From positions 6,627 to 70,626 of IMG/VR virus record IMGVR_UViG_3300020204_004643: 64,000 nucleotides of DNA, one strand, 5' to 3'. Below, piece by piece: positions 29,871-56,198 of the stretch (the first letter of the stretch is position 1; each line of letters begins with the position of its first letter). Both the position numbers and the translations under genes were made by a program. The notes below the pieces were generated by a model. That model worked only from the letters and a program-made list of their open reading frames with translations, searched no databases and had not been told where the DNA came from. The stretch comes from a virus.

Positions 29871-29871
29871 T

Positions 29872-31751: not shown

Positions 31752-32481
31752 ATTTAGAAATTAAACATGAAATAATAAATCATGCATTATCTAGCCCAAA
31801 TGAAGTTTGCGGCTTTATAAAAATGCAAGGCGATATCTTAGTAATTGAAAAAAAAGAAAATATATTAAATTCAGCAACACAATTCATGATGGAAGGAATA
31901 GATGGAGACACTGTTGCTTATTATCATTCTCATATTGATTATGATCGCATTTCTAGAGAAGACGAAATAGTTTCAGAAAGACTAGGGTTGCCCTGTATTG
32001 TTTATAATAAAAATTCTAATACATTTCATCAATATAATCCAAATGGTTTAAAAATTCAATATACAGAAAGACCATTCGTTTTAGGTTTCGCAGATTGTTT
32101 ATGGCTAGTCAAAGATTACTATTCGTATAATTTAAATATAGATTTAGCTTCCGAGCAAGAAATAATTAAAAATAATGCCTCGCAAGAGGAATACGATATT
32201 TTAGTAAAACAAAGATGTATTAACGAAGTAGATTTTCTTAAAACTAGAAGTGATTATTTAAAAAAATATTTTGAGTTAAACGGTTTTAAAGGAGTCGAAA
32301 GCCCCAAAAAGAATGATATTCTTATAACAAGAACTGCTAATTATAATTTTCCAATACATTGTATGATTTTTTTAGGAGGAGATAAAGTTTTACATCATCC
32401 TGGAAACAGCATCTCTAAAGAGGAAAGACTTTCCAGACTTCAGAAAAAATGGGTAATTTATACAATGAGGCACAATCTACT

Positions 32482-32485
<4 letters not shown>
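31745..32485 (+). CDS. Lambda gpK-like tail assembly protein (JAB + NlpC/P60), copy 2
   Basis: PNEVCG, YHSH, SRED; FVLGFADCLWLVKDYY, HCMIFLG, VLHH. Confidence 0.85.
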
Positions 32486-33204
<719 letters not shown>

Positions 33205-33205
33205 A

Positions 33206-36200: not shown

Positions 36201-39200
36201 ATCATATTAATTATATTCAATTTTTAAATGCAAGCTCGATACTTTCTAATGAAGAATCCGTTTCTTATGGCTGGGATGAAAAAAAGCAATCCTCGGTCAA
36301 TCAAGTAGAATTAGATAAAGTAAATAATTCTGCAAACTATCATGGTGTTTTTTCAGTTAATTCAAATGCAAACAATACTATAAATCTTACAGATACTCAA
36401 AACAAAGTATTATTACCAATTTCTAGTTTTAAAAATTTATATGGTAATGGTAATAAGTTTACTCCATTTGAATTTATAGATTCAAATAAACCCATAAAAC
36501 TATTTACCGACGAAAGTGCCAAACAATATGGAGGTAAAATTCAAGGTTCATGTAGTTCAATTTCTGTTGATTCAATAAATTTTGATGTCGCTTCTTTAGA
36601 ATTAGCAACAAGTAAAGCATTATTTTCTAGCGATAAATACTCGGTACAAAAAATACTAATTCCAAATGGCGTCTCGAAATATAGTTTATCGAATGACATG
36701 TGGGATGGCGAATTTAAAACAGAAAAGCAATGGACAGATAATCCTGCTTGGTGTTTTTATGATTTGTTAACTAATAAAAGATATGGCGCAGGAAATTATG
36801 TTAATGAAAGCTCTGTAGATAAATGGTCTTTATATCAGATAGGTAAATATTGTGATGAATTAGTTTCTGATGGATTTGGAGGAATTGAGCCGCGCTTTAC
36901 ATGTAATGTTTATATTCAAAGCCAAGAAGAAGCCTTGAAAGTTCTTGGAGATATGGCTTCAGTATTTAGAGGCATGTTTTATTATGCTAATGGGGCAATT
37001 TATAGCACAAATGATATGCCCCAAAATACACCTGTATATTGTTTTACAAATTCAAATGTAGTAGATGGTAATTTTAATTATGAATCAACTTCTCTAAAAG
37101 ATAGAAATACATCTGTTTATGTAAGATATATTGATAAAAATAATTTATATAAACCCGGAATCGAATATGTAGAAAATGTTGAAGCAGTTAGAAAACATGG
37201 ATTTAAAGAAACAGAAATCACAGCTTTTGGATGCACAAGTAGAGGACAAGCCCAAAGATTAGGTAGATGGGTCCTTGCTTCAGAATATAATGAAACAGAA
37301 ACGGTTTCTTTTGAAACTGGTCCAGAAGCAGTAATGTTTAAACCGGGAGACGTTATTAAAATCTATGATTACAATAAAAAATACAAAACAGTTGGTGGAA
37401 GATTAAATGCTATTTCTTTTTCAGGATTAGAAGCAAATACTACTACTGGATTTTTAACTTTAGACAGAAAACTAGATTTTAATTTCCAAAATTCAGCTAA
37501 ATATGAACTTTCTATTGTTTCTCCTAAATACATACTTGACCCCGGAACAAGTGGAGCAATTACAGGAAGTATCGATTTCGCCGAGTTCAGAAAATCTCTT
37601 ACAAATTCATTTATTATAGGCAGCGGAGATTTGATAACAGGTCAAAATTATGACACTATTCGCCTCACGGGGCTTAATTCATTTTTGAATACTGGATTAA
37701 ATATTAGTGGTTTATTGCCTTATACAGGAGGAACCGGTTATGCTCCAGCATCAATAATTTGGAATTTAGGAAATTCTGGTTCTTTAGATGGAACAACTGA
37801 TGGAGATTATGATTTTTATAGAATATTTAGGGTTCAAGAAGCTTCTCAATCAGATAACTATACAGTGCTTGCAGCACAAATGTATAATTTAAAATTTACT
37901 CAAATCGAATCAGGGTTAAATTTAACACCAAGTAGAGCCCCATCACCACCAGCATCTGCTCCTGATCAAGTTATTTTTGATTTCCAATCTTACGCAAAGG
38001 ATTCCGAGAGCTGCAAGAAAGATATTTTAAATATTGATATTTATTATAACTCTGACATAAAAACAGCAACAATAGGTTTTAGAATATTCATCAAACCAGA
38101 ATATAATTCTAGTTTTGATCCTAATATTGATACTAATTTTATTTTTACTCCAGTAGATTTAGAAAAATCTTTTGTTACTAGTTCTATTGATGCAACAAAC
38201 AGAAATGGAATTATCAGAGTTTATGGAGTTAATATTAATAACGAATGCTCACCAACTTATTCTACCGCAAAATATCGTGGTGATTCTACAATTACAAACG
38301 TAGGATATTTTAAAGAATTAACAAATTGCATAGTTAATGTTAGCAACTTTGAAGACGAAGTTATTTCTTATACTAGAAAAGATTTCTTTAATGGATTATC
38401 AATTCAAAATCCATTACCATCAGATTTACAAATTGGAACAGATTTAAAATTTATTGATAATCAAATTTATCCAAATAAATATTATCCATACAGAATTAAA
38501 ATCATACCAGAAAAAGTAGACAATAAAGCTTCATTTGCTGCGGCTTACCAAAAATACGTCGACCAAACTGATTATTTATACGAAGAAGAAAAATCTTCTC
38601 AAGGCGAAGTTTATCTATTTTCTCATCAAGCAACAAATAGAAAAATAAGAAACTTTTCAATAGCTATTGATAAATTTAATAGCTATAATTTATCTTCTAC
38701 TTCTAAAAATTTCAAGGATCCAAAAGGATTCAGATTAGTAACTTACGATAGTTTAGATAATGATTTAAAACAAACATTAGATAATCTTTTAAATAATTCA
38801 GAATTTAAACTAACTAGAGACGCTGCAGATGTTATACTTAATTTCAATATGGAATTAAAGATGACTAATTTTGTTTCTAATTTATATCTATTGTTAATTC
38901 CAGTAACAGAGATATTTGATTTTAGTGTCAATCAAATTGTATATGACGATAACAATAATCCTAAATCAATAAAAGATAAAAACAATAAAGAAATCATTGA
39001 TTCTCATTTTATTAACATAGATAACCAACCAGAAGTTTTCTATTTTAATAATCAAGTTGATACTATTGGTAAACCATTTACTCTTTTTGCATATAAACCT
39101 TATTTGATAGCTGTTGATTTATTTATGAATCTTTGGCAATCATCTTCATCTAGTATGCCAGATGGAGTTTCTATTACAAAAAATATTTTAAATTACGATT

Positions 39201-40588
39201 CTCCAATTTTAAATTCTAATGGATCACAAAAACTTTCTTATGCAGTAATTAGTTCAGTAAATAAAGAAATTAAAATACCAGAAGAAATAATAGTGGAAGA
39301 TAAGAGTCTACAAGGTAAAATACTTAAAGCTGGAATTAATTATATTCATTTAACATTAAATAATAGCGTTTTAATTGAAGGTATTTTCGATAACCCCACA
39401 AACAATCAATCAACCTCAATACCCAATTCTTATAAATTAACAAGAAGAAATGTTTTATATAAACCAACAACTGACGAGCACGTTCAAGTAAAAGACGACA
39501 GGGTATCATCTTCCGATGAAGAAGGCGCTTACTATGCTTTATCTATAGCAAATAGAAAAATTCAATATAATCATCAATCGAGCGGTAATAATTTCAACAA
39601 TTTAAGAATAATACCTTTTAACTTCAGAGCTTATACTTTATTGGGTAATAAAATCTTTACTTCTTTATTAGCTGGAATAAAAACAATTGCTAATTTACTA
39701 AATGGAATATTTCCTGAGAACTCTCAAACTAATGCCGTACAACATTTAGATATAAAGGTAAATAGAAAATTTACCGCTTCTCCTCAAGCAATTTGCCTAG
39801 CAGACTTACATATTATAAAAGACTATGACTTAAGTGGTGATAATGCTGGTAATTTAATTACTACAGAAACAAGCGAAATTAAAGAATATTTAATAAATAA
39901 TGCTACATGCTCAAGCGAGCAGTCTGCAAAAAATTTAATAAAAGATTATGAAAGTAACTTAAGTGATGGATTCAATTTATTTAATGTTACACCAGATGAA
40001 AATTTCGGATCACCAGACAAGGATTTAAATTATCCAATACCACCAACTTTTCAAAAACAATATTTAAATTACACCATAACAAATCCAAGACAAACAAATT
40101 ACATTGCAGCTTTATCCTCTTCAGAAATAACAAATAGAACTAGTTTAACTAACAATTCTTCATATTATCCCGGAGTTCCACTAATAAATGATTATTTATT
40201 TTCATTAGTAATAAATATTCCTTATCAAGGAGACGTTTATGGAGCTTCGTTTTTAGATAACAAAAGTTTAGAGGTATTTGTATATCATGGAGAAGAATTA
40301 ATATCCTCTACAACAACTCAAACGGTTATAGGAAGTTTGGGGTCTATTGATATTCCTAGTTGGAGAGAAATAGTTATTCTTATCCCTAGAATAACACCAA
40401 AAAATTATTATACTTATAAAAGAACATATGAAAATGGCGACGTTATAATAAACCCTGAGCTATGGAGTTTCAATGACGTTAAAAATTTATCCTTTGCACA
40501 TTTATCTGCTAGAAAACAACTAGGATTTTTCCCTGAACATAATTTTTATATACAGACAATGGAACTATCAATTCTAATAACTTATTAA
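33206..40588 (+). CDS. Lambda gpJ-like tail tip / host-specificity protein with a large insertion
   Basis: DLLSEGPIEGL, YPN, KVKVPSNYDP, WDGEFK..WTDNPAW, YCDELV, EPRFTCN, FGCTSRGQAQRLGRW, PGDVI. Confidence 0.92.
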   Translation: MNNLEDFKFVKGFGGGSPNNPPPPTPAYEDAEGFLYNDTVDNVYQFARVTDLLSEGPIEGLCEGEYQFKGNAGDLGYTGVYYNEYPLAIGNQNTQVKYLRSIQWNQNPLVDSQNKYNYQQININVSKGGPRGIANIEDTDSTSYIRSIGERLRGPNETAVTASQISDFQKNYRIVNKECRKIKINFKIGSLYRTLKYQDLAASIKDDPDILKTDKTFNTFTLIGRGRSETGKDVIAGVGSVIRYNFDVHIKIVPVYRTYSNTSTEIDITDASKATSVVNQENLLLKPDTTESLYKINFNGKVTQGYLKQVAIDLTNIFKNLSNNDNWVGWDITVLKTTPEGITSSKSAYISIESLTEIYYSNFRYPNAAVASANFNAEYFSRIPDRNYDVNLLKVKVPSNYDPITKTYGNEIPLTIEEKVTINSSSNSQSQNFFSAVGNTDYTNTDDQTPPITNGLIGRFDATNASPNGSITSWPNNGSDASIKCIIGGGTYASPAGANGPTKGAGNSETSPNGKYGVTFTTSQNVRFTYEDPKKTFDGPNGDYTVFYVAKIHDFALHNERKMILHSSNAENQVILGFFDNYNKAFWFGTWINSNETTNTARGNDINEYTLNEKDSNCYIVGASVRTKSKSVDTYWQNTNFSTTDLTFTYAPQGLAVNRSGTIYANQKSKCTLFELLIFNRSLTKSECFSIRNWLNKKWNVLATTTFDNTKKVLVLDSSSVNIPLKTICRNGQGATTSIRGVAKDSTQDYQNAYYAGIPQRQRNLTSKWNLANQGFCSFYSDCSINLKNTIADGNYSLMQRDDQFNLSLQVTGETLYLILTLINKETSQKFQIKKKLKATASEFKEIYPRRITAYILPKVLQQNAKYNKTWYQNHRQYGHLGNVDSLISKGPASMGLYFEGGWPDLVKAAETKGFIEEVSLSTDSNLNPLINTYIKDNRLYNNYIKFPAKEINSGGQKQGALYDSIFLYESSNPTILNSQFIVLLDFKEEIICDLNVANHINYIQFLNASSILSNEESVSYGWDEKKQSSVNQVELDKVNNSANYHGVFSVNSNANNTINLTDTQNKVLLPISSFKNLYGNGNKFTPFEFIDSNKPIKLFTDESAKQYGGKIQGSCSSISVDSINFDVASLELATSKALFSSDKYSVQKILIPNGVSKYSLSNDMWDGEFKTEKQWTDNPAWCFYDLLTNKRYGAGNYVNESSVDKWSLYQIGKYCDELVSDGFGGIEPRFTCNVYIQSQEEALKVLGDMASVFRGMFYYANGAIYSTNDMPQNTPVYCFTNSNVVDGNFNYESTSLKDRNTSVYVRYIDKNNLYKPGIEYVENVEAVRKHGFKETEITAFGCTSRGQAQRLGRWVLASEYNETETVSFETGPEAVMFKPGDVIKIYDYNKKYKTVGGRLNAISFSGLEANTTTGFLTLDRKLDFNFQNSAKYELSIVSPKYILDPGTSGAITGSIDFAEFRKSLTNSFIIGSGDLITGQNYDTIRLTGLNSFLNTGLNISGLLPYTGGTGYAPASIIWNLGNSGSLDGTTDGDYDFYRIFRVQEASQSDNYTVLAAQMYNLKFTQIESGLNLTPSRAPSPPASAPDQVIFDFQSYAKDSESCKKDILNIDIYYNSDIKTATIGFRIFIKPEYNSSFDPNIDTNFIFTPVDLEKSFVTSSIDATNRNGIIRVYGVNINNECSPTYSTAKYRGDSTITNVGYFKELTNCIVNVSNFEDEVISYTRKDFFNGLSIQNPLPSDLQIGTDLKFIDNQIYPNKYYPYRIKIIPEKVDNKASFAAAYQKYVDQTDYLYEEEKSSQGEVYLFSHQATNRKIRNFSIAIDKFNSYNLSSTSKNFKDPKGFRLVTYDSLDNDLKQTLDNLLNNSEFKLTRDAADVILNFNMELKMTNFVSNLYLLLIPVTEIFDFSVNQIVYDDNNNPKSIKDKNNKEIIDSHFINIDNQPEVFYFNNQVDTIGKPFTLFAYKPYLIAVDLFMNLWQSSSSSMPDGVSITKNILNYDSPILNSNGSQKLSYAVISSVNKEIKIPEEIIVEDKSLQGKILKAGINYIHLTLNNSVLIEGIFDNPTNNQSTSIPNSYKLTRRNVLYKPTTDEHVQVKDDRVSSSDEEGAYYALSIANRKIQYNHQSSGNNFNNLRIIPFNFRAYTLLGNKIFTSLLAGIKTIANLLNGIFPENSQTNAVQHLDIKVNRKFTASPQAICLADLHIIKDYDLSGDNAGNLITTETSEIKEYLINNATCSSEQSAKNLIKDYESNLSDGFNLFNVTPDENFGSPDKDLNYPIPPTFQKQYLNYTITNPRQTNYIAALSSSEITNRTSLTNNSSYYPGVPLINDYLFSLVINIPYQGDVYGASFLDNKSLEVFVYHGEELISSTTTQTVIGSLGSIDIPSWREIVILIPRITPKNYYTYKRTYENGDVIINPELWSFNDVKNLSFAHLSARKQLGFFPEHNFYIQTMELSILITY

Positions 40589-41291: not shown

Positions 41292-42134
41292 ATGATAGAC
41301 TTTTTATTTTGTTTTGGAGATGAGTATTTTTACTCAAATAATTTAGCGAACTGGAAAGAACTAACTGCTGGTTCAGAGATTGTAATTAGCAGTGATGAAA
41401 GTAAATATATTGTTGTAAAAAATGATATAATTCAAAACAATAAAAAATTCATTGTTAAAAATAAAAATACAATTTCAATAACAGGAAATTGCCCAGAAGT
41501 TGTTTTAGATGGAGACGCTTTGAATTGTGAATTTGAAGGTTATGAATTAATAATTATTAATGAAATAACTAATGGAGGGTCTAATCATAAAACTGGTGAT
41601 GTATTAACTATAGAAAATGGAGCTTTCTTTAATAAAACAAATGATCAAAAAGAGTCTGCTCAAGTATTAGTAAAATCCATAAATAATACTGGAACTATTA
41701 CAGAATTAGAAGTAATTAAAAAAGGAAAATATCTTTCAAACCTTACTCAAGTAAATGCCATTGCAAAGAATGGACAAGAAGTAATTCTCAATGTAATAAT
41801 GAGAAAAACTAAGGAAAAAGTTAAATTGTTTTTGAGCGTTAATGACTGTATTTATAAAGAAAAAGAAACAGATATTATTATTGAAGAAGAAATACCTATT
41901 GATTTTAAACAAGGCGAATTTTCTTTATCTCGACATAGAATAACAGTGAACAAAAAGATTGATAAAAATTACTCTTATCAGCCTTTTTTTTTGGTAGAGG
42001 AGCAAACTCCATATTTGAAACTACCTCTGGCAAAATCAAATAATATTCAAAATCTTTATAATCAAGCCATCTTGACTATAGACAGCAAACTTCAAGAAAT
42101 TAATGATAAATTAAGGCTTAACGCTAGCCAATAA
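41292..42134 (+). CDS. Hypothetical virion protein
   Basis: ITNGGSNHKTGDVLTI repeat type; 24-bp convergent overlap with the tape measure gene. Confidence 0.5.
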   Translation: MIDFLFCFGDEYFYSNNLANWKELTAGSEIVISSDESKYIVVKNDIIQNNKKFIVKNKNTISITGNCPEVVLDGDALNCEFEGYELIIINEITNGGSNHKTGDVLTIENGAFFNKTNDQKESAQVLVKSINNTGTITELEVIKKGKYLSNLTQVNAIAKNGQEVILNVIMRKTKEKVKLFLSVNDCIYKEKETDIIIEEEIPIDFKQGEFSLSRHRITVNKKIDKNYSYQPFFLVEEQTPYLKLPLAKSNNIQNLYNQAILTIDSKLQEINDKLRLNASQ

Positions 42135-45100
42135 ACCTCCGGGTCTCTTTTGTTCGACAATAACTTCCACAATTTTACCTTTGAGTAATTCAGCAAGTTT
42201 TTGATTGTTTTGCAAGTTTTGATTTTGATTTGAATTTTTATTGTCTGAATTTGTTTCTGAAGTAGCCGAAACATTTCCAGAAGAAACATTAACAGAGATA
42301 TTATTTACAATAGAACTTGTAGCAAGTTGCCCTTGAGCATTAAAGTTTGGAGATACACCACCAGTTTCAGATTGAGTAATACCATTGCTCTTACTTATAC
42401 TTTCATTTAAAGTATTTATTGCAACAACCAATTCATCAAAGTTATTATTTACAGCATTACCTCTATAACTTACAGAAGAACCGCTACCAACTAAACCTCC
42501 TTCAGCAAATCTTGTGCGAGCACCAACTCTATTAAAGGTTCCTTTATTCAAATCGCTCATTAATTGAGTACCATAATATTTAGTAGCTTCTGGGCTCATT
42601 ACATATTCATTGCCCATTAGCAATGCGGGTATATTATCTTTGCCCGCCATTCCACCCGCTTTTAGTTTTCTAACCGCACCGCCAAAAGCAAATTTTGGAA
42701 TAAGACCTCCTTTAGCATTTTTCGCAGGTGGTTCAGTTTTGGTATCACCACCCCCTTTAGAAGCGTAACCGGCAGCAGTAGATGCAACAATTTGAATAGC
42801 TGCAGCAATTAAAGCTTGATTAAAAACACTTTGAACTTTTTTATTAAAATCACTGATGGCTTTTTTTCTATCTTTTTCATACTGGTCGCGATCCTGTAAG
42901 TATCTATCTAATTCCTCAAAACGCTGTTCTCTGATTTTATTTTGAGGATTATTTTCATCAGTTAATGCAAAAGCAGACAAACGAGGATCAACTGAATATT
43001 CCCCTGAAGTTGGACGTTCTGGATCATTGTAGAGAAATTCATTTCTCATTGGACCAACTGAGAATGAACCACCATCAGCAGCAGTTTGAATTTGACCACT
43101 ATTCAATTGATCTAAGAAATCAGCGCCATATTTTTTAACAGAGCTTTGTTTAATAACAAATTCGCCGCCGCTCATCATAGCTGGCACATCATCTCTAAAT
43201 CCTGATCCACCAGTTACTAAACCGCCAAAGTTATAACCTTTAATTAAGCCGCCGTATTTTTTAGCTCCAGCTCCGGTTACAGTATTAACTCCTCCTGCTG
43301 TATATGCACCATCTGAAGATGCCGATGCATTTCCTGTTCCAAAATTGAAAGAGGAAAATCCTTTTTGTGCTGCTCCTAAAACTGTATCAACCAACTGAGC
43401 GGTAGCTCTATCAGTTAATCTATTTAATAAAGATTGAAAGAAATCAGAAAAAGCTTCTCTTAGTGTTTTAGTTCCTTTTATAGCTTCGCTAAATGCGCCA
43501 GCAATTCCTGTCTTAAAATCAGTAAGTAATATTTTTAAAGTATCCCCCGTATCTTTTGCGGCATCAGCTGGTCCATATTCAAAAACAGATCTAACAATTG
43601 AACCTACTGGTACATTTCCTTGTCGAGCTTCAGCTGTAATTCTTGCTTCAGCAGCTGCTTGTTTTTCTTCTCTAAAGAAATTTCTTCCGTATGCGGTTTC
43701 ATATAAAAGTTTTTCTCTATCTTTAGTAGTTGCAAGTTCTAAGTCTAATTCTTTCTTTCTAATTTTAAGTTGAATTTGTAATTGTTTTTCTTGTTGTTCT
43801 TTAGTTTGAACTCCTTCAGCTAAAATTTCATTAACTTCTTCTTGTAACTTGACTAATTCTGTATTGGATTGTAAATAAAATTCAGTTTGTAAATTTAAAC
43901 CTTTTAATTGTTGTCTTAAGCTTTGAATTCTTTCATTAGGATCTGTTGGTTTATCGGGCTGTTGATTAGATGAATTATTATTTAAAAGTTTTTCATAATA
44001 TATAGAATTTTTTAAAGCATCTGCCATTAGTCCTTCTAAATAAGCAATATTTTGTTTTTTATCTAAAGGTTTTGCAGTTACAGAAGTTGAAAATTTTTGA
44101 AATTTATTAAGTAGCTCAAGTATTGATTCAACAGTACCCGAGGTTACTCCAGAATATCTTCGAACAATATCACTAATTTGTACATCTTTAGATTGGTTAT
44201 TATTACCTCCAAATCCACCACTAGGAGTAAAAGTACTTTGAGGAATTTGCTGCAACAAATTATTCGTGACTTTTTGAAATGCTTGCGCTGTTTCTGGGGG
44301 TAAATTTGTATTTAAGTTAAAAATCCCCTTTTGCAAATCTTTAATTTCTTGTAAAAACTTTTCTCTATCATTAAATGGCACATTAGAAGGTATTAAATCT
44401 CTAATTTGTTTATTTATATCAGCTTCTTTAGTGGCAATAATTAATTCCGTCAGTTTACTTTCTAGAGTTTTATTGACTGTAATTAATTGATCTTTTACAT
44501 TTTTTTGAATTACACTAGCAAAATTTTTATTTAAATTTGGAATTTGTTCTTTTAAATAATTTGTTTGCTCATTAGTTAATTGATTTAAAATTCCTGCCTC
44601 TTCTTGTAAAATATCTAAATAAGTACCAATATTTTGTAATTTAAGTTCTGAAGAAATCTGTAACAACGCTGTGCCTACTGCATTTTCATTAGCAGTTTTA
44701 AATGCTAAAGCTAATGGACTTTCTTTTCCAATTGATCCGATTTGAGCTTCAGTGGTTTGTCTAGCTAAATTAAGAGATTCTCTAATTTGACTAGTTCTTC
44801 CTGCGATAGAAATTGCAGTTAAAGGACGCAATTGATCAGATACAGCTTTATTAAAGCTTTCTGGACTAACAAAAGGAATTGGAGAAGTAGTTGCTCTATT
44901 TAACTGTAATTGATTAGTTAAGGTATCTAAAAGTTTAAAAACACTAGATCCCAAAAGGGAAATATTTTCACCTCTATTACCTATTGCATTATTTTGCCTA
45001 AGTTCTCCAACTAAATCAGCAATGCTATCATAAAGATCAGAAACTCCTAATCTTCCTGTTGAAGCTAGTGCTCGACCACCACCTGCAAAACTTAAACGTT

Positions 45101-48100
45101 GATTTAATTCGTAAGTTTTTCTTTGAAAATCAACTTGACTTTTTTGTAAAAGCAAATCTACCTCACCTTGAGCTTTAATACGCGCTAATTCATTTTGAAA
45201 AGAAGCAAATTCTTTCTCTAATTGTTGTATAAGAACTTCTTGTTGACCTCCAGTTAAAGTAGCAGTACTTCGAATTTCTTGAGCTAATTTATCTCGTACG
45301 TTAGAAACGTTTACTCCGCCTCTTGCTGCCTCTAAGCCTTGACTAGCTAAATTACTTAATTTACTAAGATTATTAATAAATAAATTGGTATCTTTTACAA
45401 TTTGATTTGGTTCTCTATTTAAATCAGCAGTAACTCCAATTGCTTGATCTGTTATTTCTTTTATTTTAGAAGTTAAACTTTCATTAAAAGAATCTAAGGT
45501 TTTATTTAATGCGTCTCGAATTTGTGAATTTTGACGAGTGGTAATTTCATTTAAATCTAATTGACCTTGGATATTATTGCGTTGTTGATCTGTGATAAAT
45601 GGTGAAAATACTTCTAATAAATTTTTAACTCTTGATCTTTGAACATTAATAACTCCTTCAGAAAATATCTTATTTATATCTCTAATAGCAGATGATCTAT
45701 TTTGTTCAATTTGAATTTGTTGAGAAAGTTGAAAATTTAAATTTGTATACTGTTGATTTAAAAGTCTTAATGCTTCGGCAGCTTGTTTATTCTTTTTTAC
45801 ATTATCTGTTTGAATTGAAGTTAAATTAGCGGCTTCTTCTTTGGTTGCGAAAGCAGTAATGCCGAGTTCGCGAAGAGATGAAACAAGTCCACGAATAACT
45901 TTGATATCAAAATTTTCAGCTGCTTTTTTAAAAGCTGATGCCAACTCTGGAGTTAGCAAACCCTGAGAACCAAGTAAACTTTCGACTTTATTTAAATTTC
46001 TTAAATTTAATACTTGAGGAGCGTTAGCCTGCAAGCCTCTTCCTGACTGATATGTAGTAAACAATTCTCCTGATAATCGAGAAATAAATTTGTCAAAATC
46101 TTGTTGGTTGCCAAATCTTTTTGTTAAATCTTGTTGATTAATATTTCTTGTGAAACTTCTGTTTAATAATTGTTGATCATTAGATCTTAATTGTATTGCG
46201 GATCCAAAATAAGAAAGGAAACCTTTATTATTTGATATAAGTTGCAAAACGCTACTTACTGATTCTAAATTTTGCTGTGATCTACCTAATTCTTTATTAA
46301 CATCAGAAATAGCTTCTGCTATTTTTGTTAAATCAGATCCCGCCGCTAAAACTTTTTGTCTAAACTCATCAGGAATTTGTCCTAATGATTCTTGAATTAA
46401 ATTTTGAAATCTAATTAAAGCATCTGGTCTAGCATTAGGATCATTTAATGCTGTTTTTAATTGCTCTAATGAAGATGAATAACCTTGAGATGCATTAGCA
46501 AAAGTATTAGTTTTATCTCTGATTAAATCTATAGATTTACCAATTTTATAAATATATTCTTCTAAATTAGAATCAACAACTTTTTTAGCAGCAATACCAA
46601 TTCCCAAAAGCGCTCCAGCAGCTGCTCCTGCTGGACCAAAAGCCGCTCCTGTTCCAGCATAAGAGAATACGTCTCCCACTCCAGAAGTTAATGCTCTAGC
46701 TTGAAAATTTTGTTGAGGGATAAATTGTTCAGCTATATTAGCGACTCCCGCGCCAATCAAACCAACCCCGAACCCTGCATTTTTAATTAAAGTATCAGCT
46801 TTCGCTTTTGTAGTGGTTTTCGATGCTGCTTCGGCAATTTTTTCAGATTCTAATATTTTTGATTTTGCGCCAATTTCTTTAGATTTAGTTACAAAATCCG
46901 CAGTTGAAGTTTGTATTGCTAGATTTTCATTTTTTATTAACTGTTCTTGTTGCCTTATCTGTTTTCCTATTGCGCGAGATGAACTTAAATATTTAGTATT
47001 TTCCGCTGGATCAGGGCCAAGACCAAGACCTGCACGTAATTTAGTAGAAGCATCAAGAGCAGCCTTCTCTGTTTTTCTTTGCTTTTTTAAATCAGAAATA
47101 TTTTGTTTTGCAGCATCAATACTTTGATTTCTAACAGTTTTCTCAGCTTTAAGTTGACTATTTAATTCATTTATTCTTTCTGCAGCTGATTTTCTAATCC
47201 CTTTTACATCTTCTGCTAAAGCAGAGTTAACTGCTTTTACAGATTCTTTAATGTTTTTAAAAGCGTCAATAACACTTCGAATTTGAGTATTTAACCCAAT
47301 TAAAGTCGCTGCAATTAAAGTAACATCAAATCTATCAAATCCTCCTTCTGCGAAATTTGGTACAAATCCAGAACTCATTCCTTTTGTTTTAGGATTGATT
47401 CCGGCTTCACGCGCAAATGCCATGCCCTGATTTAAACCGCCGGGTTCTTGGACCGTATTATAAACTCCAAGTCCTTGAGGATTAAATGAAGTTTTTAAAG
47501 AATTACTTTGTCCGATTTTAACTTGGGAAGCTGAAAAGCCAGCGTCCATTTCTCTATTAATAGCTTCTCGAACGGCATTGAAATTTGGAATAAATCCTTT
47601 TCCTAAAAAAGTTTTAAATTTCGCAAAATTAGGAACAAAACCAGAAGCAAAGTTTGGCTGCAACCCATTTTTTCTTACAAAATCGCGAAACAACTCTAAA
47701 TCTTCTTGCGATGGATTTTTATTTCTAATTCCTTTTATTTGATAAGCATCTATTGAATATAAAGGTGGGCCTTTTCTTGCTTTTCTAAATTGCAAATAAG
47801 ATTTAACTGTATTTAATCTTACCTCCTCCGCTATCATGCTCCTTTCAGCCATCAACTCCGCCATTGCGGTGGTGGTGCTGGATTTGCCTAAAGAAGTAGC
47901 GTGATACTTGAGGCTTTTAATAAAATTTCTTATTTCAGCGCGATTTTGCCTAGTGTTAAAATCAGAATTTGGTATTATTCTTTTTCTTTGAGGATTTAAT
48001 TCTGCAGTTGCCGTTCCAGTTGAAACGATTAAGCTTTTAGGTAATCCTGTTTTCGTATCAATATTAGAACATGCGTCTCCATAGCCAGCAACGCAATGAT

Positions 48101-51100
48101 CCATTCTATTTCCTTCTTCATATAAAGATTTTTCATTTTTTAATATTTTTACTCTATCCGTTTCTTTACTTAAGTGAGGTATTATTGGAAAAGTCCTATT
48201 AGAAACAGCGATTTTTTTCTCGATTTGTTGTCTAGCTTGTTCTGATAATCTAGTTTTAACACTTTCAAAAGCTTTTGGGAGAGAAGTTTTATCTCCATTT
48301 GGTAAATCAGCTTCTGTTAAATTATTTATTAAATCTATATATGTGTATTGTCTTTGTTGTCCTGCTGCTCCATATTCAGCAAATGTTTTTTCAAACTGTA
48401 TGGAATTTTTATTTTTAACTAAAAAATCAATTATTTTTCTATTTTCCAAATCATATTTTACAAAACGTGATTTTTTTAATAAACCATAGTCGTTTTTAAA
48501 AAGAAATTTTGTTATTTCAGGAGATAAATCAATTGGTTCGCTTGGAGAAGGTCTAGAAATTCGCCATTTTAAATAATCAACAACTTCTTTATTAGAATTT
48601 AACACTTTCTTATTCGTCACTTCTTTAAAAGCTTCAAGCGGGCTTCTAGATTCTAGATAAATAGCTCTATCTAAACCTCGTATTCCTGAATGTAGAATAT
48701 AACTAGGAATATTAAATACTTCTCCTGCATCTATATCTTTAAAATTTTCATATAAAGATTGAAAAAGTATATTATCGGTAGACTTTTTATTAAAAGGGGC
48801 TTTTTTAACACTTCCAAATACAGAAAAAGAAAATTTTTCATCTCTATCAAATTCCGCAAGCTGAGTAAGCAAATCTTTATCTACTTTTTCTGGACTATCA
48901 AAGAACTCGGCTTGTTTTTGTAAATCTTTAGAAGTAATTGGCGGTGCCATTGATCTAATTTTTTGAGCTACATCTTTCAATTTATCATTTTGCAAAGCAA
49001 ATTCAAAAAAAATTGCTGGATCACTATCTACAAAAATTCCTCGACGAATAGAACGTTCTTTTAAGAAAGCTAAGTAAGATTTTCTTACATCAGGAAAAAT
49101 CAAAGTTTTCTTAAATCTGTCTTGTATATCTTCATTAATAAAATAATCTTGAGTACGCGGAAGTCTATCAGAAATAGATTTTTCCAATGGATCTTTATAA
49201 AAACGATCATTTTTGGGAAAAAATGCTTTGAGATATCTACTAGTTCCTATAAAATCACCATTTGAAAAAAAATCATTAAAAAAATCAGACTCGTCATTTG
49301 TTAATTTTCTACCAAAAACTTCTAGTTCTTTATCTTTTGGAACTGAGCCATTAGGCATAAAAAAATTTCTAAAATATTTCGGCGCATCCCTGTTAATATA
49401 TTTGTCAACTGACTCGTAGGTTTTGAAATAATTAATATATTTTTTAAATATTCCTTCTTTTTTAAGTTTTGAAAAAGTTAAATATCTTGCTCGTCCAGAG
49501 GGTCCTCCATAATTATTATCATTTTGTATTACAGCTCCAGTTCCTAAGTCGGAAAAAGCAAAATTAGGAATAAAGCCACTACTAAAATCTTCTGGAGAAA
49601 TTCCAGAAACAGATGGTCTACCTAAATAATCAATTGATTTAGTTCTACTGTTTCGAACTTTAGCGATTAATCTTCTTGCTTCTTCTGGCCCAAATGGTAT
49701 AGATTTTTCTGTAAAATTGACATTAACTCCTTTAGTTCTTCTTTCGTTTAAAATTTGAACTAATTCTTTTGCTTTAAGATCTGGATTAATGTTTAATAGA
49801 TCTTTAACAAATTTTACTCTGGCTGACAATACACTCATACCGCGACCCCCACGGATATTAGTGTTTGAAAATTCAGAAACAGTTTGAGAATCAAAATTAT
49901 TTAAATACTGTTGTAAAGCATCAGAAGAACTAAAATTAGGAATAAAACCTTTATCAAAGCGTCCGAGTTCTGGAATTCTTCCTTGTCGATAAAAAGCTTT
50001 AGCGATTCTTTCGGTGAAACCTAAATCCATTAATTTAAGTTTTGGACTACTTGTTCTAGTAAAACCAATATTTCTACCTCCAAAAAAATCAGACACGTCA
50101 ATATCGTATTCCTCTCCAAATTTTAATATTTGGTTTTCAAGATCTGAATAAGGCGAAAAAAGCATGAAATGGCTAGCGGGTTTGCCAAGTAATTGTTCAG
50201 ATGGTCTTGGTCTTTTGAAACCATCTAACTCTTGGACATCGTTTAATCTTTCTGTGATACTCCAAAGATTTTTTCTATTATCTGAAGCAAAAATTTCTGG
50301 TAAAATATCAGAATATCTTTCTCTAGCAGATCGATCATTTAAAATTCTATTTTCAACAAAATTTTGAGCAATTCCAGCTTTGTTAGCTGCAATTTTTAAA
50401 AACATTTTATCATCAAGAGCAATTCCAATTCTAGATGATCCTCTTTTAATTCGTAAACCTTTTTCTTGACTTAAACGTGTCAACCATAAATATAAATCTT
50501 CTGGCGAAGAAAAAGATTTTAATTTTGCTTCAGTTAATAAATCTTTTAAATTGTTATCTGCAAAATTAGGAATATACCCTTTAGAAAAATCAGATAATCT
50601 AATTTGTCTCAAATAAGAAGTAATGCTCTTTTCATCATTTGATGGAACAATTCTGTAATCTAAAACTCCATCACTTCTAAAATGTCTTATTAAGTTTTGA
50701 TATCCATCAGCGCCATACTTAGTTGTAAATCCTGAAAATTTTACTACTGGTGAACCTTTAGAATCTAAAATTGGATTTTTAGTAGCTTTATCTAAAATAG
50801 GATCTATTCTTCCAATGTTAACTAAATATTTTGCTATGGATTCAGGATCATTTTTCTTTCCATAAGCCATTACTAAGCGATCATTTAGTTTAAATTTATC
50901 AAATTTAGTAGCCGCAAAATTAGGGATAAAACCTTTTGAATATGCTTTAGGTTTTTCCATCATGATTCTGGAATACTCTTCATCAATAAATTCAGTAAGA
51001 CTTCCACTGAATGGACTTATGGCGGCAGCTCTTTGATCTGCTCTTCTTTGACTTGGAACATTTGCGTAAAGTCTTTTGTCTTGAGTGCCTCCTTCAGAAG

Positions 51101-54050
51101 GCAAACGCAAAAGTTTATTGCCTTTAAATTTATATATAGGATCTCTTAAATTATTAGATACTAAAATATCTTGCCATGGACCTTTTATTTGATCAAAAAC
51201 ATCACTAAATTTAACACCCAAAAGAAGCGGCCAATTCTCTGGTCTACTTCTGACGTTTTTAAATTTTTTATTAGTTTTATCTATTTCAATTCCACCAGCT
51301 TTAAATTCAAAAAATGCTCTTTTTACTGTATCTACAGCGTCGACATCTGTAGTTTCTTCTCCACCAGTTCCAAACAATCCAATTTCTTTAGCAGATTTTA
51401 TATCTGGATATGCAGAATTTTTTAAATATTTTAAAGCGAAATCTTCATATTTTGCTCCGAAAGCTTTTGCTGGAACTTGAGAAACAATGCCTTCCTGTTT
51501 TTGATATAACTTTTCAAACTTTTTTAATCGCTCTAGTCTTTGTGATAATTGAACAGGTACAGGCTTGCCTTCTTTTTGTAATTTTGTAGCAGTGTTTAAC
51601 TGATCATTTATTATTCTTAGTTTCTTTGAAATGGCTTGTTTTTGTTGTGATTCAGCCGGATAATTAGATTGAATAAAATTTTTAAAAGTTTCCATCGTCG
51701 CTACTAGAACAGCAGCATTAATTGTAGGTTCATCTAATAATTTTTCTGGTACGGGAATAGAAGATTTAGATCGGTTACCCTTTCTTTCTTCTCTATTTAT
51801 TTGTGTTGTAATAGCTCTTAAATAGTTTGCATAACCAGTTGGAAGATAACTAGTATTGTATTCTTTTTGAAAACCTTGTAAATCTGTTTGAAATTCCTCT
51901 AATTCCTGTGGTTTAAGATTTGTAAAATAATTTTTATCTGATAAATTCCAAGTAAGAGGGCCAGCAACTTTTTTTCCTTGTTTATTTATAATTTTATCGA
52001 CACGATAAGCTTTTCCTATTTTCCTCATGTAGTCTCTAAATTGTTTAGGTCCAAAGCCCCCAGACTCTTCATCATCTTGAGCAAAATTAGGAATAAACCC
52101 ATCAAATGACATTCCTGAATTGCTACCACCAAGAATAGATCCCATTTTACCAGACTTCATCATTCCAATAGCTTTTTCCATTCCGCCGCCATACTTTGGA
52201 ATCACCATTGAATCTCCATTGCGACCAACTCCCACAAATTCTTTTTCGTCTGTATTTAAAATAAATTTTTTGCCGCCAATAGTTCCTTCGCTTAGTCTAG
52301 CTCTAACTCCCTTTTTAGCTCCTAACTTTGTAGCTTCTGAAACTTCAGAAGTCATTTGTGAAGCCATCGAATCAGAAAAATTAGGCAAAAAGCCTTTTGA
52401 AGTCCTCCTAGTGGGGGCCAATCTATTAGAAACTACAAGATTTGATGCATTTACACCCATTCCGGAAGCAATAAAAGACTTACTAAAACTTTCTGATGTA
52501 TTTTTTATACTCTCCGCTAAACTAGACTGTTGAATTAAAACATCTCTTATTTCTTTTTCGATTTGAAGACGAGTTTTTTCGCCAGTAATTAATTGACCTA
52601 TTATAGCAGGATTTGATTGCAGAATTCCTTTAATTGATTCTTCAAGTTTTCCTCTTTGTTGAGATACGCTATTTAAACCAAGGAGATTTTTAGTAGCGTC
52701 AGCAGTAAATCCGGCAAAACGTCCGAATAATTTACCTAAAACAACGCTACCCAAAATTAAACCGGGACCAGTTATAAAACTAGTAATTCCTTTTAATAAT
52801 CCTGATCCAATTTTAGCTCCAACACTTTCCCCGCTCTTTTCATTAATTTGATTAAGAGAATCATTTAAAATACCTACTAAATTTTTAATTCCGGGACCGA
52901 CGCTTACATTACCAATATTTTTGCCAAATTGAACTAAATTAACACTAGCTTCATTAACTAAAGCTGTGATGCTTTTATTTAGAGCGTTATTTTTAATAAT
53001 TGCATCATCAATTGCTTTATTAGATGCAGAAGTCGCTGCTTGAAAAATAGAATTCTCTTTAGATAAATCAGATAATGCAGCTTTTAAAATGTTAATTTGG
53101 AATACACCGCCAACCAATTCTCCGACTTGAGCTCTAATAACTGGATTTAAATCCTCAAAAGATTTTGCTAAGTTTTCTAATACTTGAACTATCGGTAAAG
53201 TATTTCCTTCAATATCTTTTACGGCAACTCCGAAATCTCTTAAATCATTTATAACTTCTGGTCTTTGAATTCTTGTAAATATTGTTTTTAATGCGTTACC
53301 AATGACAGCACCACCACGAGCAGTAGTTTGCTGAACTGAAGTTACAATACCTAATAACTCATCAAAACTTACTCCTGCTTCACTCGCAGAAGAACCTACA
53401 CGTTTGACCGCTTCAGAAAGATCTCTTGAACTAACAGCGAACTTTGCGTCAACTGCTGCTAATTTATTAACGACATCAGTTGTTGTTAGCGCTTCTTTTG
53501 TAAAAGAGTTAACTGCTGAAGTTAATGCTTCAGTACTAGAAACGACATCTAAACCGGCAAGACGAGTTAAAATAAGAGCGTCTCTAGTCCTTTTTAAAGT
53601 ATCTTCTAACGATAAACCTTGACGGGAAAACTCAATTGCAGCTTCAGTTACTTGATTAAAAGAAGAACCAGTTTGTTTTGCGACATTAAATAATTGATCA
53701 CCAAATTGAGTTAAAGTTTTAGTAGAAGAATTTAATACTACATTAATGTCAGTAAGAGATTTTTCTACTTCTATAGTGCTGGAAATTAAAGCAGAAAAAG
53801 CTTTTTCAACATTATAAATAATACCCGCTGAAGCGCCGAATGCTACAACACGAGCATTTGAAGCTTCAAGTGACTTTTGAAACTCATCTGCTTGCCCAGT
53901 GATTCTGCCTAAAGGTTGAGAAAAGTTCTTGGTATTTAAATTAAGAGTACTTTTTCTTTCTATGCGACGTAACGCTGCTAAAACATCTCTTTCCGCAGCG
54001 GAAGTATCAATCGTCGCGCTAATAGTTATTGAACCTGATGAAGTAGCCAT
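42111..54050 (-). CDS. Tail tape measure protein (3979 aa) with an internal multi-domain cargo array
   Basis: TP901-type core (EFSRQG..LTSAVN..LAAVD..TARGGAVIGNALKTIFTR), Gly/Ala hydrophobic segments, coiled coils, C-terminal GG..DDVPAMMSGGEFV; follows tube and chaperone genes. Confidence 0.93.
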   Translation of the reverse strand: MATSSGSITISATIDTSAAERDVLAALRRIERKSTLNLNTKNFSQPLGRITGQADEFQKSLEASNARVVAFGASAGIIYNVEKAFSALISSTIEVEKSLTDINVVLNSSTKTLTQFGDQLFNVAKQTGSSFNQVTEAAIEFSRQGLSLEDTLKRTRDALILTRLAGLDVVSSTEALTSAVNSFTKEALTTTDVVNKLAAVDAKFAVSSRDLSEAVKRVGSSASEAGVSFDELLGIVTSVQQTTARGGAVIGNALKTIFTRIQRPEVINDLRDFGVAVKDIEGNTLPIVQVLENLAKSFEDLNPVIRAQVGELVGGVFQINILKAALSDLSKENSIFQAATSASNKAIDDAIIKNNALNKSITALVNEASVNLVQFGKNIGNVSVGPGIKNLVGILNDSLNQINEKSGESVGAKIGSGLLKGITSFITGPGLILGSVVLGKLFGRFAGFTADATKNLLGLNSVSQQRGKLEESIKGILQSNPAIIGQLITGEKTRLQIEKEIRDVLIQQSSLAESIKNTSESFSKSFIASGMGVNASNLVVSNRLAPTRRTSKGFLPNFSDSMASQMTSEVSEATKLGAKKGVRARLSEGTIGGKKFILNTDEKEFVGVGRNGDSMVIPKYGGGMEKAIGMMKSGKMGSILGGSNSGMSFDGFIPNFAQDDEESGGFGPKQFRDYMRKIGKAYRVDKIINKQGKKVAGPLTWNLSDKNYFTNLKPQELEEFQTDLQGFQKEYNTSYLPTGYANYLRAITTQINREERKGNRSKSSIPVPEKLLDEPTINAAVLVATMETFKNFIQSNYPAESQQKQAISKKLRIINDQLNTATKLQKEGKPVPVQLSQRLERLKKFEKLYQKQEGIVSQVPAKAFGAKYEDFALKYLKNSAYPDIKSAKEIGLFGTGGEETTDVDAVDTVKRAFFEFKAGGIEIDKTNKKFKNVRSRPENWPLLLGVKFSDVFDQIKGPWQDILVSNNLRDPIYKFKGNKLLRLPSEGGTQDKRLYANVPSQRRADQRAAAISPFSGSLTEFIDEEYSRIMMEKPKAYSKGFIPNFAATKFDKFKLNDRLVMAYGKKNDPESIAKYLVNIGRIDPILDKATKNPILDSKGSPVVKFSGFTTKYGADGYQNLIRHFRSDGVLDYRIVPSNDEKSITSYLRQIRLSDFSKGYIPNFADNNLKDLLTEAKLKSFSSPEDLYLWLTRLSQEKGLRIKRGSSRIGIALDDKMFLKIAANKAGIAQNFVENRILNDRSARERYSDILPEIFASDNRKNLWSITERLNDVQELDGFKRPRPSEQLLGKPASHFMLFSPYSDLENQILKFGEEYDIDVSDFFGGRNIGFTRTSSPKLKLMDLGFTERIAKAFYRQGRIPELGRFDKGFIPNFSSSDALQQYLNNFDSQTVSEFSNTNIRGGRGMSVLSARVKFVKDLLNINPDLKAKELVQILNERRTKGVNVNFTEKSIPFGPEEARRLIAKVRNSRTKSIDYLGRPSVSGISPEDFSSGFIPNFAFSDLGTGAVIQNDNNYGGPSGRARYLTFSKLKKEGIFKKYINYFKTYESVDKYINRDAPKYFRNFFMPNGSVPKDKELEVFGRKLTNDESDFFNDFFSNGDFIGTSRYLKAFFPKNDRFYKDPLEKSISDRLPRTQDYFINEDIQDRFKKTLIFPDVRKSYLAFLKERSIRRGIFVDSDPAIFFEFALQNDKLKDVAQKIRSMAPPITSKDLQKQAEFFDSPEKVDKDLLTQLAEFDRDEKFSFSVFGSVKKAPFNKKSTDNILFQSLYENFKDIDAGEVFNIPSYILHSGIRGLDRAIYLESRSPLEAFKEVTNKKVLNSNKEVVDYLKWRISRPSPSEPIDLSPEITKFLFKNDYGLLKKSRFVKYDLENRKIIDFLVKNKNSIQFEKTFAEYGAAGQQRQYTYIDLINNLTEADLPNGDKTSLPKAFESVKTRLSEQARQQIEKKIAVSNRTFPIIPHLSKETDRVKILKNEKSLYEEGNRMDHCVAGYGDACSNIDTKTGLPKSLIVSTGTATAELNPQRKRIIPNSDFNTRQNRAEIRNFIKSLKYHATSLGKSSTTTAMAELMAERSMIAEEVRLNTVKSYLQFRKARKGPPLYSIDAYQIKGIRNKNPSQEDLELFRDFVRKNGLQPNFASGFVPNFAKFKTFLGKGFIPNFNAVREAINREMDAGFSASQVKIGQSNSLKTSFNPQGLGVYNTVQEPGGLNQGMAFAREAGINPKTKGMSSGFVPNFAEGGFDRFDVTLIAATLIGLNTQIRSVIDAFKNIKESVKAVNSALAEDVKGIRKSAAERINELNSQLKAEKTVRNQSIDAAKQNISDLKKQRKTEKAALDASTKLRAGLGLGPDPAENTKYLSSSRAIGKQIRQQEQLIKNENLAIQTSTADFVTKSKEIGAKSKILESEKIAEAASKTTTKAKADTLIKNAGFGVGLIGAGVANIAEQFIPQQNFQARALTSGVGDVFSYAGTGAAFGPAGAAAGALLGIGIAAKKVVDSNLEEYIYKIGKSIDLIRDKTNTFANASQGYSSSLEQLKTALNDPNARPDALIRFQNLIQESLGQIPDEFRQKVLAAGSDLTKIAEAISDVNKELGRSQQNLESVSSVLQLISNNKGFLSYFGSAIQLRSNDQQLLNRSFTRNINQQDLTKRFGNQQDFDKFISRLSGELFTTYQSGRGLQANAPQVLNLRNLNKVESLLGSQGLLTPELASAFKKAAENFDIKVIRGLVSSLRELGITAFATKEEAANLTSIQTDNVKKNKQAAEALRLLNQQYTNLNFQLSQQIQIEQNRSSAIRDINKIFSEGVINVQRSRVKNLLEVFSPFITDQQRNNIQGQLDLNEITTRQNSQIRDALNKTLDSFNESLTSKIKEITDQAIGVTADLNREPNQIVKDTNLFINNLSKLSNLASQGLEAARGGVNVSNVRDKLAQEIRSTATLTGGQQEVLIQQLEKEFASFQNELARIKAQGEVDLLLQKSQVDFQRKTYELNQRLSFAGGGRALASTGRLGVSDLYDSIADLVGELRQNNAIGNRGENISLLGSSVFKLLDTLTNQLQLNRATTSPIPFVSPESFNKAVSDQLRPLTAISIAGRTSQIRESLNLARQTTEAQIGSIGKESPLALAFKTANENAVGTALLQISSELKLQNIGTYLDILQEEAGILNQLTNEQTNYLKEQIPNLNKNFASVIQKNVKDQLITVNKTLESKLTELIIATKEADINKQIRDLIPSNVPFNDREKFLQEIKDLQKGIFNLNTNLPPETAQAFQKVTNNLLQQIPQSTFTPSGGFGGNNNQSKDVQISDIVRRYSGVTSGTVESILELLNKFQKFSTSVTAKPLDKKQNIAYLEGLMADALKNSIYYEKLLNNNSSNQQPDKPTDPNERIQSLRQQLKGLNLQTEFYLQSNTELVKLQEEVNEILAEGVQTKEQQEKQLQIQLKIRKKELDLELATTKDREKLLYETAYGRNFFREEKQAAAEARITAEARQGNVPVGSIVRSVFEYGPADAAKDTGDTLKILLTDFKTGIAGAFSEAIKGTKTLREAFSDFFQSLLNRLTDRATAQLVDTVLGAAQKGFSSFNFGTGNASASSDGAYTAGGVNTVTGAGAKKYGGLIKGYNFGGLVTGGSGFRDDVPAMMSGGEFVIKQSSVKKYGADFLDQLNSGQIQTAADGGSFSVGPMRNEFLYNDPERPTSGEYSVDPRLSAFALTDENNPQNKIREQRFEELDRYLQDRDQYEKDRKKAISDFNKKVQSVFNQALIAAAIQIVASTAAGYASKGGGDTKTEPPAKNAKGGLIPKFAFGGAVRKLKAGGMAGKDNIPALLMGNEYVMSPEATKYYGTQLMSDLNKGTFNRVGARTRFAEGGLVGSGSSVSYRGNAVNNNFDELVVAINTLNESISKSNGITQSETGGVSPNFNAQGQLATSSIVNNISVNVSSGNVSATSETNSDNKNSNQNQNLQNNQKLAELLKGKIVEVIVEQKRPGGLLASVKP
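47352..52394 (-). repeat. Ten in-frame G[FYL][ILVQ]PNF motif copies inside the tape measure gene
   Basis: 52377-52394, 52083-52100, 50916-50933, 50562-50579, 49932-49949, 49560-49577, 47649-47666 (degenerate GLQPNF), 47625-47642, 47580-47597, 47352-47369. Confidence 0.95.
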
Positions 54051-54071
54051 ATTTCCTTAAACCTAAAAATA

Positions 54072-55095: not shown

Positions 55096-55100
55096 ATACT

Positions 55101-55126: not shown

Positions 55127-55145
55127 AGAATTTAAACGATGAATT

Positions 55146-56180: not shown

Positions 56181-56198
56181 CGTTTTGGTTAATTAATA

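Follow-up and report, generated by a model that had tools for sequence, protein, structure and literature searches.

A phage tape measure protein carries an array of unrelated modules bordered by a recurring G[FY][ILV]PNF peptide

What is a stretch of 1681 residues that is not ordinary tape doing in the middle of a phage tape measure protein, and why does one short peptide recur along it? The question is raised by an open reading frame (ORF) of 3979 amino acids (aa), located at 42111..54050 on the (-) strand of a 64,000-nucleotide stretch of virus DNA, which is referred to here as the window and covers positions 6,627 to 70,626 of the IMG/VR virus record IMGVR_UViG_3300020204_004643. The record comprises 70.6 kb and is judged to be about 46% complete. 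The ORF runs without interruption, its frame staying open for 11,937 bases. PF10145 (PhageMin_Tail) matches aa 123-309 of the whole protein with E=1.2e-29 and 104 bits against a Pfam cut-off of 33.2, 14 PHROG tape-measure families align inside aa 6-907, and lambda-type tail tip genes adjoin the gene; these matches and this neighbourhood identify the ORF, on sequence grounds, as the tape measure protein of a siphophage from a lake, not yet cultured, whose tail tip is of the lambda type.

The unusual region, aa 553-2233, is punctuated by a boundary peptide of the form G[FY][ILV]PNF. Nine copies fit this strict pattern, compared with 0.0006 expected from the composition of the protein, and no strict copy is found elsewhere in the 64-kb window in any frame; a tenth copy reads GLQPNF. 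All are encoded on the (-) strand: GFLPNF at aa 553 (52377..52394), GFIPNF at aa 651 (52083..52100) and aa 1040 (50916..50933), GYIPNF at aa 1158 (50562..50579), GFIPNF at aa 1368 (49932..49949) and aa 1492 (49560..49577), a cluster (47580..47666) composed of GLQPNF at aa 2129, GFVPNF at aa 2137 and GFIPNF at aa 2152 with gaps of 2 and 9 aa, and GFVPNF at aa 2228 (47352..47369), the last in the series. A preliminary description of this DNA had listed ten copies, separating segments of 92, 383, 112, 204, 118, 631, 2, 9 and 70 aa; the same 9-mers and positions were recovered and the lengths are exact. Its claim that the segments are mutually unrelated also holds, as BLASTP detects no similarity among them at E<=1e-5. 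The suggestion that the motif serves as an exchange point at the DNA level fares poorly, since the codons vary and the DNA around the copies has at most 18 identical bases in common. The same observation shows that the boundary peptide is, on the evidence of its codons, under selection at the protein level.

On both sides of the array the protein is ordinary tape, which comprises the conserved N flank, aa 1-552 (52395..54050, -), and the conserved C flank, aa 2234-3979 (42111..47351, -), each aligned by BLASTP with other motif-bearing ORFs. All 2 Cys, 6 His and 6 Trp residues of the protein are confined to aa 553-2233, both flanks being free of them, and aromatic residues make up 10.9% of this region versus 4.3% of the N flank and 6.1% of the C flank; A, Q, L and E together account for 36% of aa 2234-3450. 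A hydrophobic stretch lies on each side of the array: one spans aa 421-448 of the N flank (52707-52790, -; hydropathy peak 1.55), and the other spans aa 2243-2261 of the C flank (47268-47324, -), where it begins ten residues past the last motif. Further hydropathy peaks of the C flank lie at aa 2469-2492 and 3742-3764, and the array itself has none. By our own arithmetic, the flanks alone (2298 aa) would correspond to a tail length of ~345 nm at 1.5 Å per residue. Near the C terminus, two copies of a glycine-rich repeat, D(D/N)(V/I)PA..(M/L).GGE(F/Y)V, are present at aa ~3480-3979 (42111-43700, -), phrog_13338 (function unassigned) matches aa 3509-3662, and the degenerate motif-like strings GGLIPKFA and GGVSPNFNA occur near aa 3782 and aa 3898, respectively.

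Between the flanks, the array is made up of seven unrelated folded modules with the boundary peptide at every module border. AlphaFold2 (AF2) models of two of the modules show compact domains; one of these models also takes in the motif, whose copies are situated there in flanks of lower confidence.

Module 2 (383 aa; 50934..52082, -) provides the most informative case. A full HMMER search of 1.84 billion representatives returned just 6 other proteins; these are 2210-3161 aa long, contain 3-7 motif copies each, and are aligned only to module residues 192-310. Within the aligned part E869, D904, E915 and K917 (window numbering) are invariant in 8/8 sequences, forming an E..D..ExK constellation. 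The AF2 model of aa 859-988 (51087-51476, -), with pLDDT 81.6 and pTM 0.79, displays the order alpha-beta-beta-beta-alpha-beta, and the invariant residues map to helix H2-19 and around strands E47-49 and E54-59. Structural comparison with 48,161 chains by VIA-align gave NucS 2vld_B as the best match (Z 8.2, root-mean-square deviation 2.9, 97 aligned residues) and AF1548 1y88_A as the second (Z 8.1), values to be read with the tool's own guidance that Z below 8-9 is middling; PD-(D/E)xK nucleases predominate in the top rows, and the 50 rows as a whole consist mainly of nucleases of the restriction, repair and CRISPR-ancillary kinds together with CdiA-CT nuclease toxins. Foldseek returned no match at E<=0.001, its weak top rows being largely nucleases, Pfam has no match to module 2, and PDB sequence searches with the module and with its profile yielded noise only. 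In the ESM Atlas the scores reach at most 0.86, and Tox-REase-7 at rank 17 (0.84) is a weak lead. We assign aa 859-988 as a PD-(D/E)xK nuclease-like domain, its activity being predicted, because the fold class is accompanied by an invariant catalytic constellation; the Z values alone are middling.

Module 6 (631 aa; 47667..49559, -) encloses a PcfJ-like domain at aa 1923-2026 (47973-48284, -), for which PF14284 scores 28.1 bits with the whole protein and 30.9 bits with the segment against a cut-off of 25, over profile positions 22-128 of 147. In the ESM Atlas, the closest clusters, which are a lead only, consist of free-standing 188-280-aa proteins of bacteria and viruses (score 0.88-0.89), and three of them are partly PcfJ (29-40% of members). 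Searches of PDB sequences, word-based protein searches and the search for close relatives in IMG/VR gave no relatives of module 6. Three enzyme-like segments had been proposed in the preliminary description. The nuclease, as a PD-(D/E)xK-like domain in segment 2, and PcfJ are upheld; the kinase finds no support in the Pfam, PHROG or NCBIfam profile searches of the segments and is rejected.

The remaining modules have few or no recognisable relatives. For module 1 (92 aa; 52101..52376, -), the only homologues are partial and belong to tape measure ORFs that likewise bear the motif (L039 and L084 by BLASTP; P0002-P0005). Residues 31-113 of module 4 (204 aa; 49950..50561, -) match phrog_4301, whose function is unassigned, with E=2.2e-7, which is the sole PHROG match among the segments; Pfam, NCBIfam, PDB sequence and word-based protein searches gave nothing for this module. 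No relatives of module 3 (112 aa; 50580..50915, -) and module 5 (118 aa; 49578..49931, -) were found in Pfam, PHROG, NCBIfam, BLASTP against the motif-bearing ORFs, word-based or IMG/VR searches, and the IMG/VR search for close relatives of modules 3-5 found none. NCBIfam returned sub-threshold noise only for all segments and the C flank, and a word-based search of aa 559-1491 against shorter proteins returned 4 tape measure proteins with coverage of at most 9%. The terminal module (70 aa; 47370..47579, -) bears a family signature in which E, G and N are invariant in a 44-sequence alignment. AF2 predicts a small alpha-beta-beta-alpha domain with a core pLDDT of about 85, the motifs on its two sides lying in weaker regions (block means 46-67), and Foldseek found no match to it in the PDB at E<=0.001.

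The same layout recurs in a family of phages. A scan of IMG/VR with the back-translated GFIPNFA identified at least 119 loci, a sample thus selected by the motif itself. The motif lies inside an open frame of at least 400 aa in at least 106 IMG/VR loci, mostly in several copies, and the family peptide that recurs in at least 106 long ORFs of IMG/VR phages can be written as [AS][AS]xG[FY][IV]PNFA. The logo of 326 distinct instances reads A(35%) [AS](85%) x G [F84/Y15] [I77/V19] P N F A(71%), where the last position is biased by the scan pattern, and nothing is conserved beyond it. Homology to modules 1 or 2, and not the motif, led to ten further proteins (P0002-P0011), all of which possess 3-7 copies, with the first copy at residue 541-636 in each save the truncated P0009; P0006 is annotated by the Joint Genome Institute (JGI) as a TP901 family phage tail tape measure protein.

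Splitting the homologues at the motif reveals conserved flanks around variable contents; the BLASTP-based counts that follow are among the matches listed. The N flank yields 70 BLASTP rows among the motif-bearing ORFs with up to 67% identity (L075, L033, L053, L007, L016), long N-domain alignments are present in 60 of these ORFs with 24-67% identity, and the C flank yields 64 rows, with identity reaching 40% over 1649 aa (L075). The lineage is coherent by its N-domain identity of 24-67% and its locus GC content of 0.30-0.47. Modules 3-6 find no match among the same ORFs, module 2 finds one partial match and module 1 two, while the terminal 70-aa module is aligned in 59/106. Grouping of the 260 internal segments gives 75 families, of which 45 have a single member, and shared families occur in differing order and with differing neighbours. 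In the 43 ORFs that have both flanks and whose arrays are distinct, the motif occurs 1-10 times (median 4) and the array is 6-1681 aa long (median 513), the array of the window being the largest of the sample. The ends of high-scoring segment pairs (HSPs) fall within 5 aa of a motif for 48.6% of 10,922 endpoints inside arrays versus 6.9% of random points, and their median distance to a motif is 5.5 aa compared with 37 aa, figures obtained from pairs that are non-independent and with a conserved motif that can anchor alignment ends. These comparisons of predicted proteins show that, among relatives, whole modules have been added, lost or exchanged at the peptide, with the flanks and the last 70-aa module kept; the module number and identity vary, and homology ends at the motif.

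Pfam was also run on 143 non-redundant modules of at least 90 aa, and it recognised GNAT acetyltransferases (3), SNase, a cytidylyltransferase, a GHKL ATPase (HATPase_c) and DUF6203. In five of the closest relatives (L007, L016, L075, L033, L076), GHIPNF, with His in place of Phe or Tyr, follows the terminal module. Another ORF of more than 3000 aa (L116) contains nine motif copies, mostly GFVPNF, and has no detectable N- or C-flank similarity to the window protein; it may represent a more distant branch or a different carrier protein. Beyond IMG/VR, the pattern AAxGFIPNFA, which catches some motif variants only, gave 3 matches in 185,579 species genomes, all in short metagenome-bin contigs; the bins are labelled Proteobacteria, Gammaproteobacteria and Flavobacteriaceae, and are too few for naming a host. 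That scan, made for this one motif variant, gave no sign of prophages. Cultured phages contain distant N-domain relatives with less than 30% identity (Geobacillus virus E3, the Lactococcus 949 group and others), and an INPHARED tblastn search returned no match to the array and none to the terminal module even at E<=1.

What purpose could such an array serve? We favour, with a probability of roughly 45%, the reading that the modules ride in the tape measure protein and enter the host, and that the peptide is a processing signal which frees them. As portions of the tape measure protein, the modules would be carried inside the tail lumen, would exit the tail first at infection, and would act in the host as ready-made proteins ahead of phage gene expression. 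Lying in an unfolded linker, the peptide would mark a boundary that a single conserved factor recognises, and proteolytic processing would part the modules from the tape and from one another, as at one site of T5 pb2. In the window protein the kit may comprise the PD-(D/E)xK nuclease-like and PcfJ-like domains; in relatives it may include domains of the GNAT, SNase, nucleotidyltransferase and GHKL ATPase families. Several of these cargo families need acetyl-CoA or nucleotides, from which we infer that the modules act in the cytoplasm. Processing is preferred because T5 and lambda set a precedent for it and because modules with different targets would have to be released; confidence in it is modest because no protease has been found and the motif is unusually strict.

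The precedent itself is instructive. According to the T5 report (PMC10038345), pb2 is cut after R1127, at a point that separates a hydrophobic stretch from a muralytic domain, the cleaved part remains in the tail, and the lambda tape measure protein is cleaved too. T5 pb2 and lambda gpH are processed while the tail is assembled, the cut parting an enzyme domain from the tape beside a hydrophobic stretch; the array of the window is likewise bracketed by such stretches and is accompanied by a lambda-type tail tip. T5 has one site and one muralytic domain, whereas the window protein has ten peptide copies and seven modules, none of them muralytic by Pfam, and cleavage at its peptide copies would be by analogy.

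Several points weigh against the delivery and processing of the modules. No protease that might read the motif was found in the window, where the only peptidase-like domain is NlpC/P60 in a tail tip gene, and this negative covers a record that is about 46% complete. To our knowledge, six invariant residues exceed what phage maturation sites have. Relatives of module 2 were found only within other giant tape measure proteins; modules 3, 4 and 5 and most of module 6 are without recognisable relatives, so that an effector role for them is conjectural; at most 11/143 modules of the family have any Pfam match. The folded modules amount to 1681 aa per chain, and room for several chains in the tail lumen is unexplained. 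The selection of the IMG/VR sample by the motif and the two biases of the HSP-endpoint comparison count here as well. Finally, the T5 cleavage site, as given in PMC10038345, is unlike the motif of the window.

A second reading leaves the peptide uncut and treats it as a chaperone-binding handle that holds the linkers between modules, which is possible, if somewhat unlikely. Two kinds of reader could be imagined. A phage tail assembly chaperone or the tube could bind the handle, letting the tube polymerise over the non-helical stretch, or a SurA-type host periplasmic chaperone could keep the modules unfolded on their way from the tail tip to the inner membrane. The position of the motif in low-confidence linkers outside the domain core, as modelled by AF2 for the terminal module, suits a handle, and the cargo-free close copies, 2 and 9 aa apart, fit a multivalent one. 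A lambda-type tail tip suggests a diderm host. Genome injection by HK97 requires the periplasmic chaperone FkpA and PtsG, according to PMC5099701. The phage-display peptide WEYIPNV is described in PMC7195389 and PMC11401910 as binding the P1 parvulin domain of E. coli SurA with a Kd of 1-14 uM and opening the chaperone; [FY]-I-P-N plus a hydrophobic residue corresponds to residues 3-7 of this peptide, and the copy at aa 1158 of the window protein is GYIPNF. This likeness was, however, spotted post hoc among many known short peptides. Of the published SurA preference Ar-X-Ar-X-Pro, the motif has only the second aromatic, X and Pro, and the first-aromatic position is occupied mainly by S (24%), G (21%) and K (18%) over the 326 instances. 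Because the family is a single lineage with the identity and GC ranges given above, a phage-encoded reader is as likely as one from the host. As for a phage reader, no tail assembly chaperone was identified, and the two ORFs upstream of the tape measure gene (54079-55095 and 55146-55886) have no family matches.

The more specific proposal, in which the peptide mimics an outer-membrane-protein-type client signal, its copies recruit SurA through P1 as the protein leaves the tail tip, and unfolded modules are kept soluble and passed through an inner-membrane channel formed by the flanking hydrophobic segments, is quite unlikely in our estimation. A predicted complex of E. coli SurA 165-290 with aa 1140-1180 of the tape measure protein (score 0.01, mark 0.34) was made without controls and counts neither way. 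Were the SurA proposal true, new modules could plug in if they brought a copy of the handle, and injection would be a chaperone-assisted process with exchangeable payloads.

It is also conceivable, and we regard it as unlikely, that the modules are structural tail parts, such as spacers or plugs of the lumen or parts of the neck or tip that set length or gate ejection, with the peptide as a packing element. Such a role would be in keeping with the lack of an enzyme family for most modules, with the confinement of module-2 relatives to tape measure proteins, and with the terminal 70-aa module, which matches no known fold and is kept in 59/106 ORFs among the matches listed. A range of 1-10 copies and 6-1681 aa between phages whose flanks are 40-67% identical would nevertheless be unexpected for structural parts, the nuclease-like module retains its catalytic constellation in 8/8 sequences, and some modules consist of GNAT, SNase, nucleotidyltransferase or ATPase domains. 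Among other candidates for the peptide, a 2A-like skipping peptide, a sortase or CTERM sorting signal and a clamp-binding motif were rejected, as the sequence is not known to fit any of them. Asn-mediated self-cleavage at PN|F, as in noda- and tetravirus capsids, was judged improbable, there being no supporting structural context.

That the array is an assembly chimera, or a set of genes fused by sequencing error, is scarcely credible: the window does come from a metagenome record about 46% complete, and short joints with 21-24 matching letters per side occur near some motif sites in contig graphs, but contigs from four other sequencing runs tile 42000-54200 and bridge every motif junction, the long pieces with 0 differences (X14 record 20, 48101-51843; X12 record 4, 46356-48015; X14 record 22, 52134-53764; X16 record 30, 51550-52559), 20/24 listed lake-water runs contain at least half of the words sampled from the array, the DNA shared between motif copies is so short (at most 18 bases) that repeats cannot have misled the assembler, the frame is open throughout, and the same layout is found in more than 100 other phages. 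The 21-24-letter joints were also considered as module-swap variants and rejected, since the tool's own guidance attributes such joints to repeats or to other organisms.

Known systems share single features with this protein. The tape measure protein gp96 of Thermus phage P23-45 carries an active virion RNA polymerase, as reported in the available text of PMC10770324; it is likewise a giant tape measure protein with a non-tape enzyme that acts in the cytoplasm, is carried in the virion and is used before phage gene expression, whereas cytoplasmic action in the present case would follow from the cargo families. In P23-45 there is one enzyme, at the N terminus, that text describes no repeated boundary peptide or cassette variation, and the INPHARED tblastn search indicates no sequence relation to the array. 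The polyvalent proteins of phages and conjugative elements, as portrayed by Iyer et al. (2017; PMC5512222), are giant chains of unrelated conflict-type domains for which entry together with the DNA and processing into units have been proposed. In the array, two of the seven modules have a recognisable domain, and relatives add GNAT, SNase, nucleotidyltransferase (NTase) and GHKL. Their processing model rests on an embedded metallopeptidase, whereas Pfam finds no peptidase in the window protein or its segments, and the main text of PMC5512222, in the portion available, contains neither 'tape measure' nor 'PcfJ' and describes no fencing peptide. Tape measure and polyvalent proteins are treated in separate passages of PMC7824862. 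TP901-1-type tape measure proteins belong to the same N-terminal family (PF10145) as the window protein; cultured relatives of this type have an N domain less than 30% identical, and the terminal module is found in none even at E<=1. No phage paper with the motif strings was found in the literature searched, in accordance with the preliminary description, which knew of no account of this architecture.

The surroundings of the gene depart from the customary arrangement. Lambda-type tail tip genes, recognised by Pfam and PHROG, occupy 29307..40588 on the (+) strand and are convergent with the tape measure gene: an M-like gene containing PF05939 (29307-29870), a tail tip gene between the M-like and L-like genes (29872-30996), the L-like gene (30996-31751), a K-like gene with NlpC/P60, PF00877 (31745-32485), an I-like gene matching phrog_32 (32449-33204), and the gene for a J-like central tail fibre of 2460 aa matching phrog_31 (33206-40588), all (+); phrog_18 and phrog_30 also match within this block. 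Two stretches of the J-like protein match phrog_31, the best-scoring at aa 1164-1437, and much of the remainder may be unassigned. The M, L, K, I and J-like genes are thus situated on the strand opposite to the tape measure gene, while lambda usually has M-L-K-I-J after H, all on one strand. The interval immediately upstream of the tape measure gene (54079-61562, -), where one would look for the tail tube, tail chaperone and neck genes, contains eight ORFs, none of which matches a PHROG or Pfam family above threshold. Two ORFs beyond those eight carry Laminin_G_3 domains. In all, Laminin_G_3 (concanavalin-like lectin) domains are present in an 1833-aa protein and three smaller adjacent ORFs (21029-26530, -, and 61602-63874, -), and an IPT/TIG domain is found in 26532-27611; the Laminin_G_3 and IPT/TIG proteins may be fibres or decoration proteins.

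Of all phage proteins, it is the tape measure protein that enters the cell envelope first. The known examples that carry an enzyme, as far as the sources available describe them, have a single embedded one: T5 pb2, P23-45 gp96, and TM4 Tmp, a mycobacteriophage tape measure protein reportedly with an embedded peptidoglycan hydrolase motif. An entire lineage of uncultured aquatic siphophages whose tape measure protein serves as a rack of one to ten exchangeable modules fenced by a peptide would stand apart from these examples, and it raises the question of what reads G[FY][IV]PNF. The fencing peptide is a simple handle for finding such payloads in metagenomes, most of them without a known family. 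If the favoured reading of delivered and processed modules is true, long-tailed phages could inject a changeable set of ready-made proteins.

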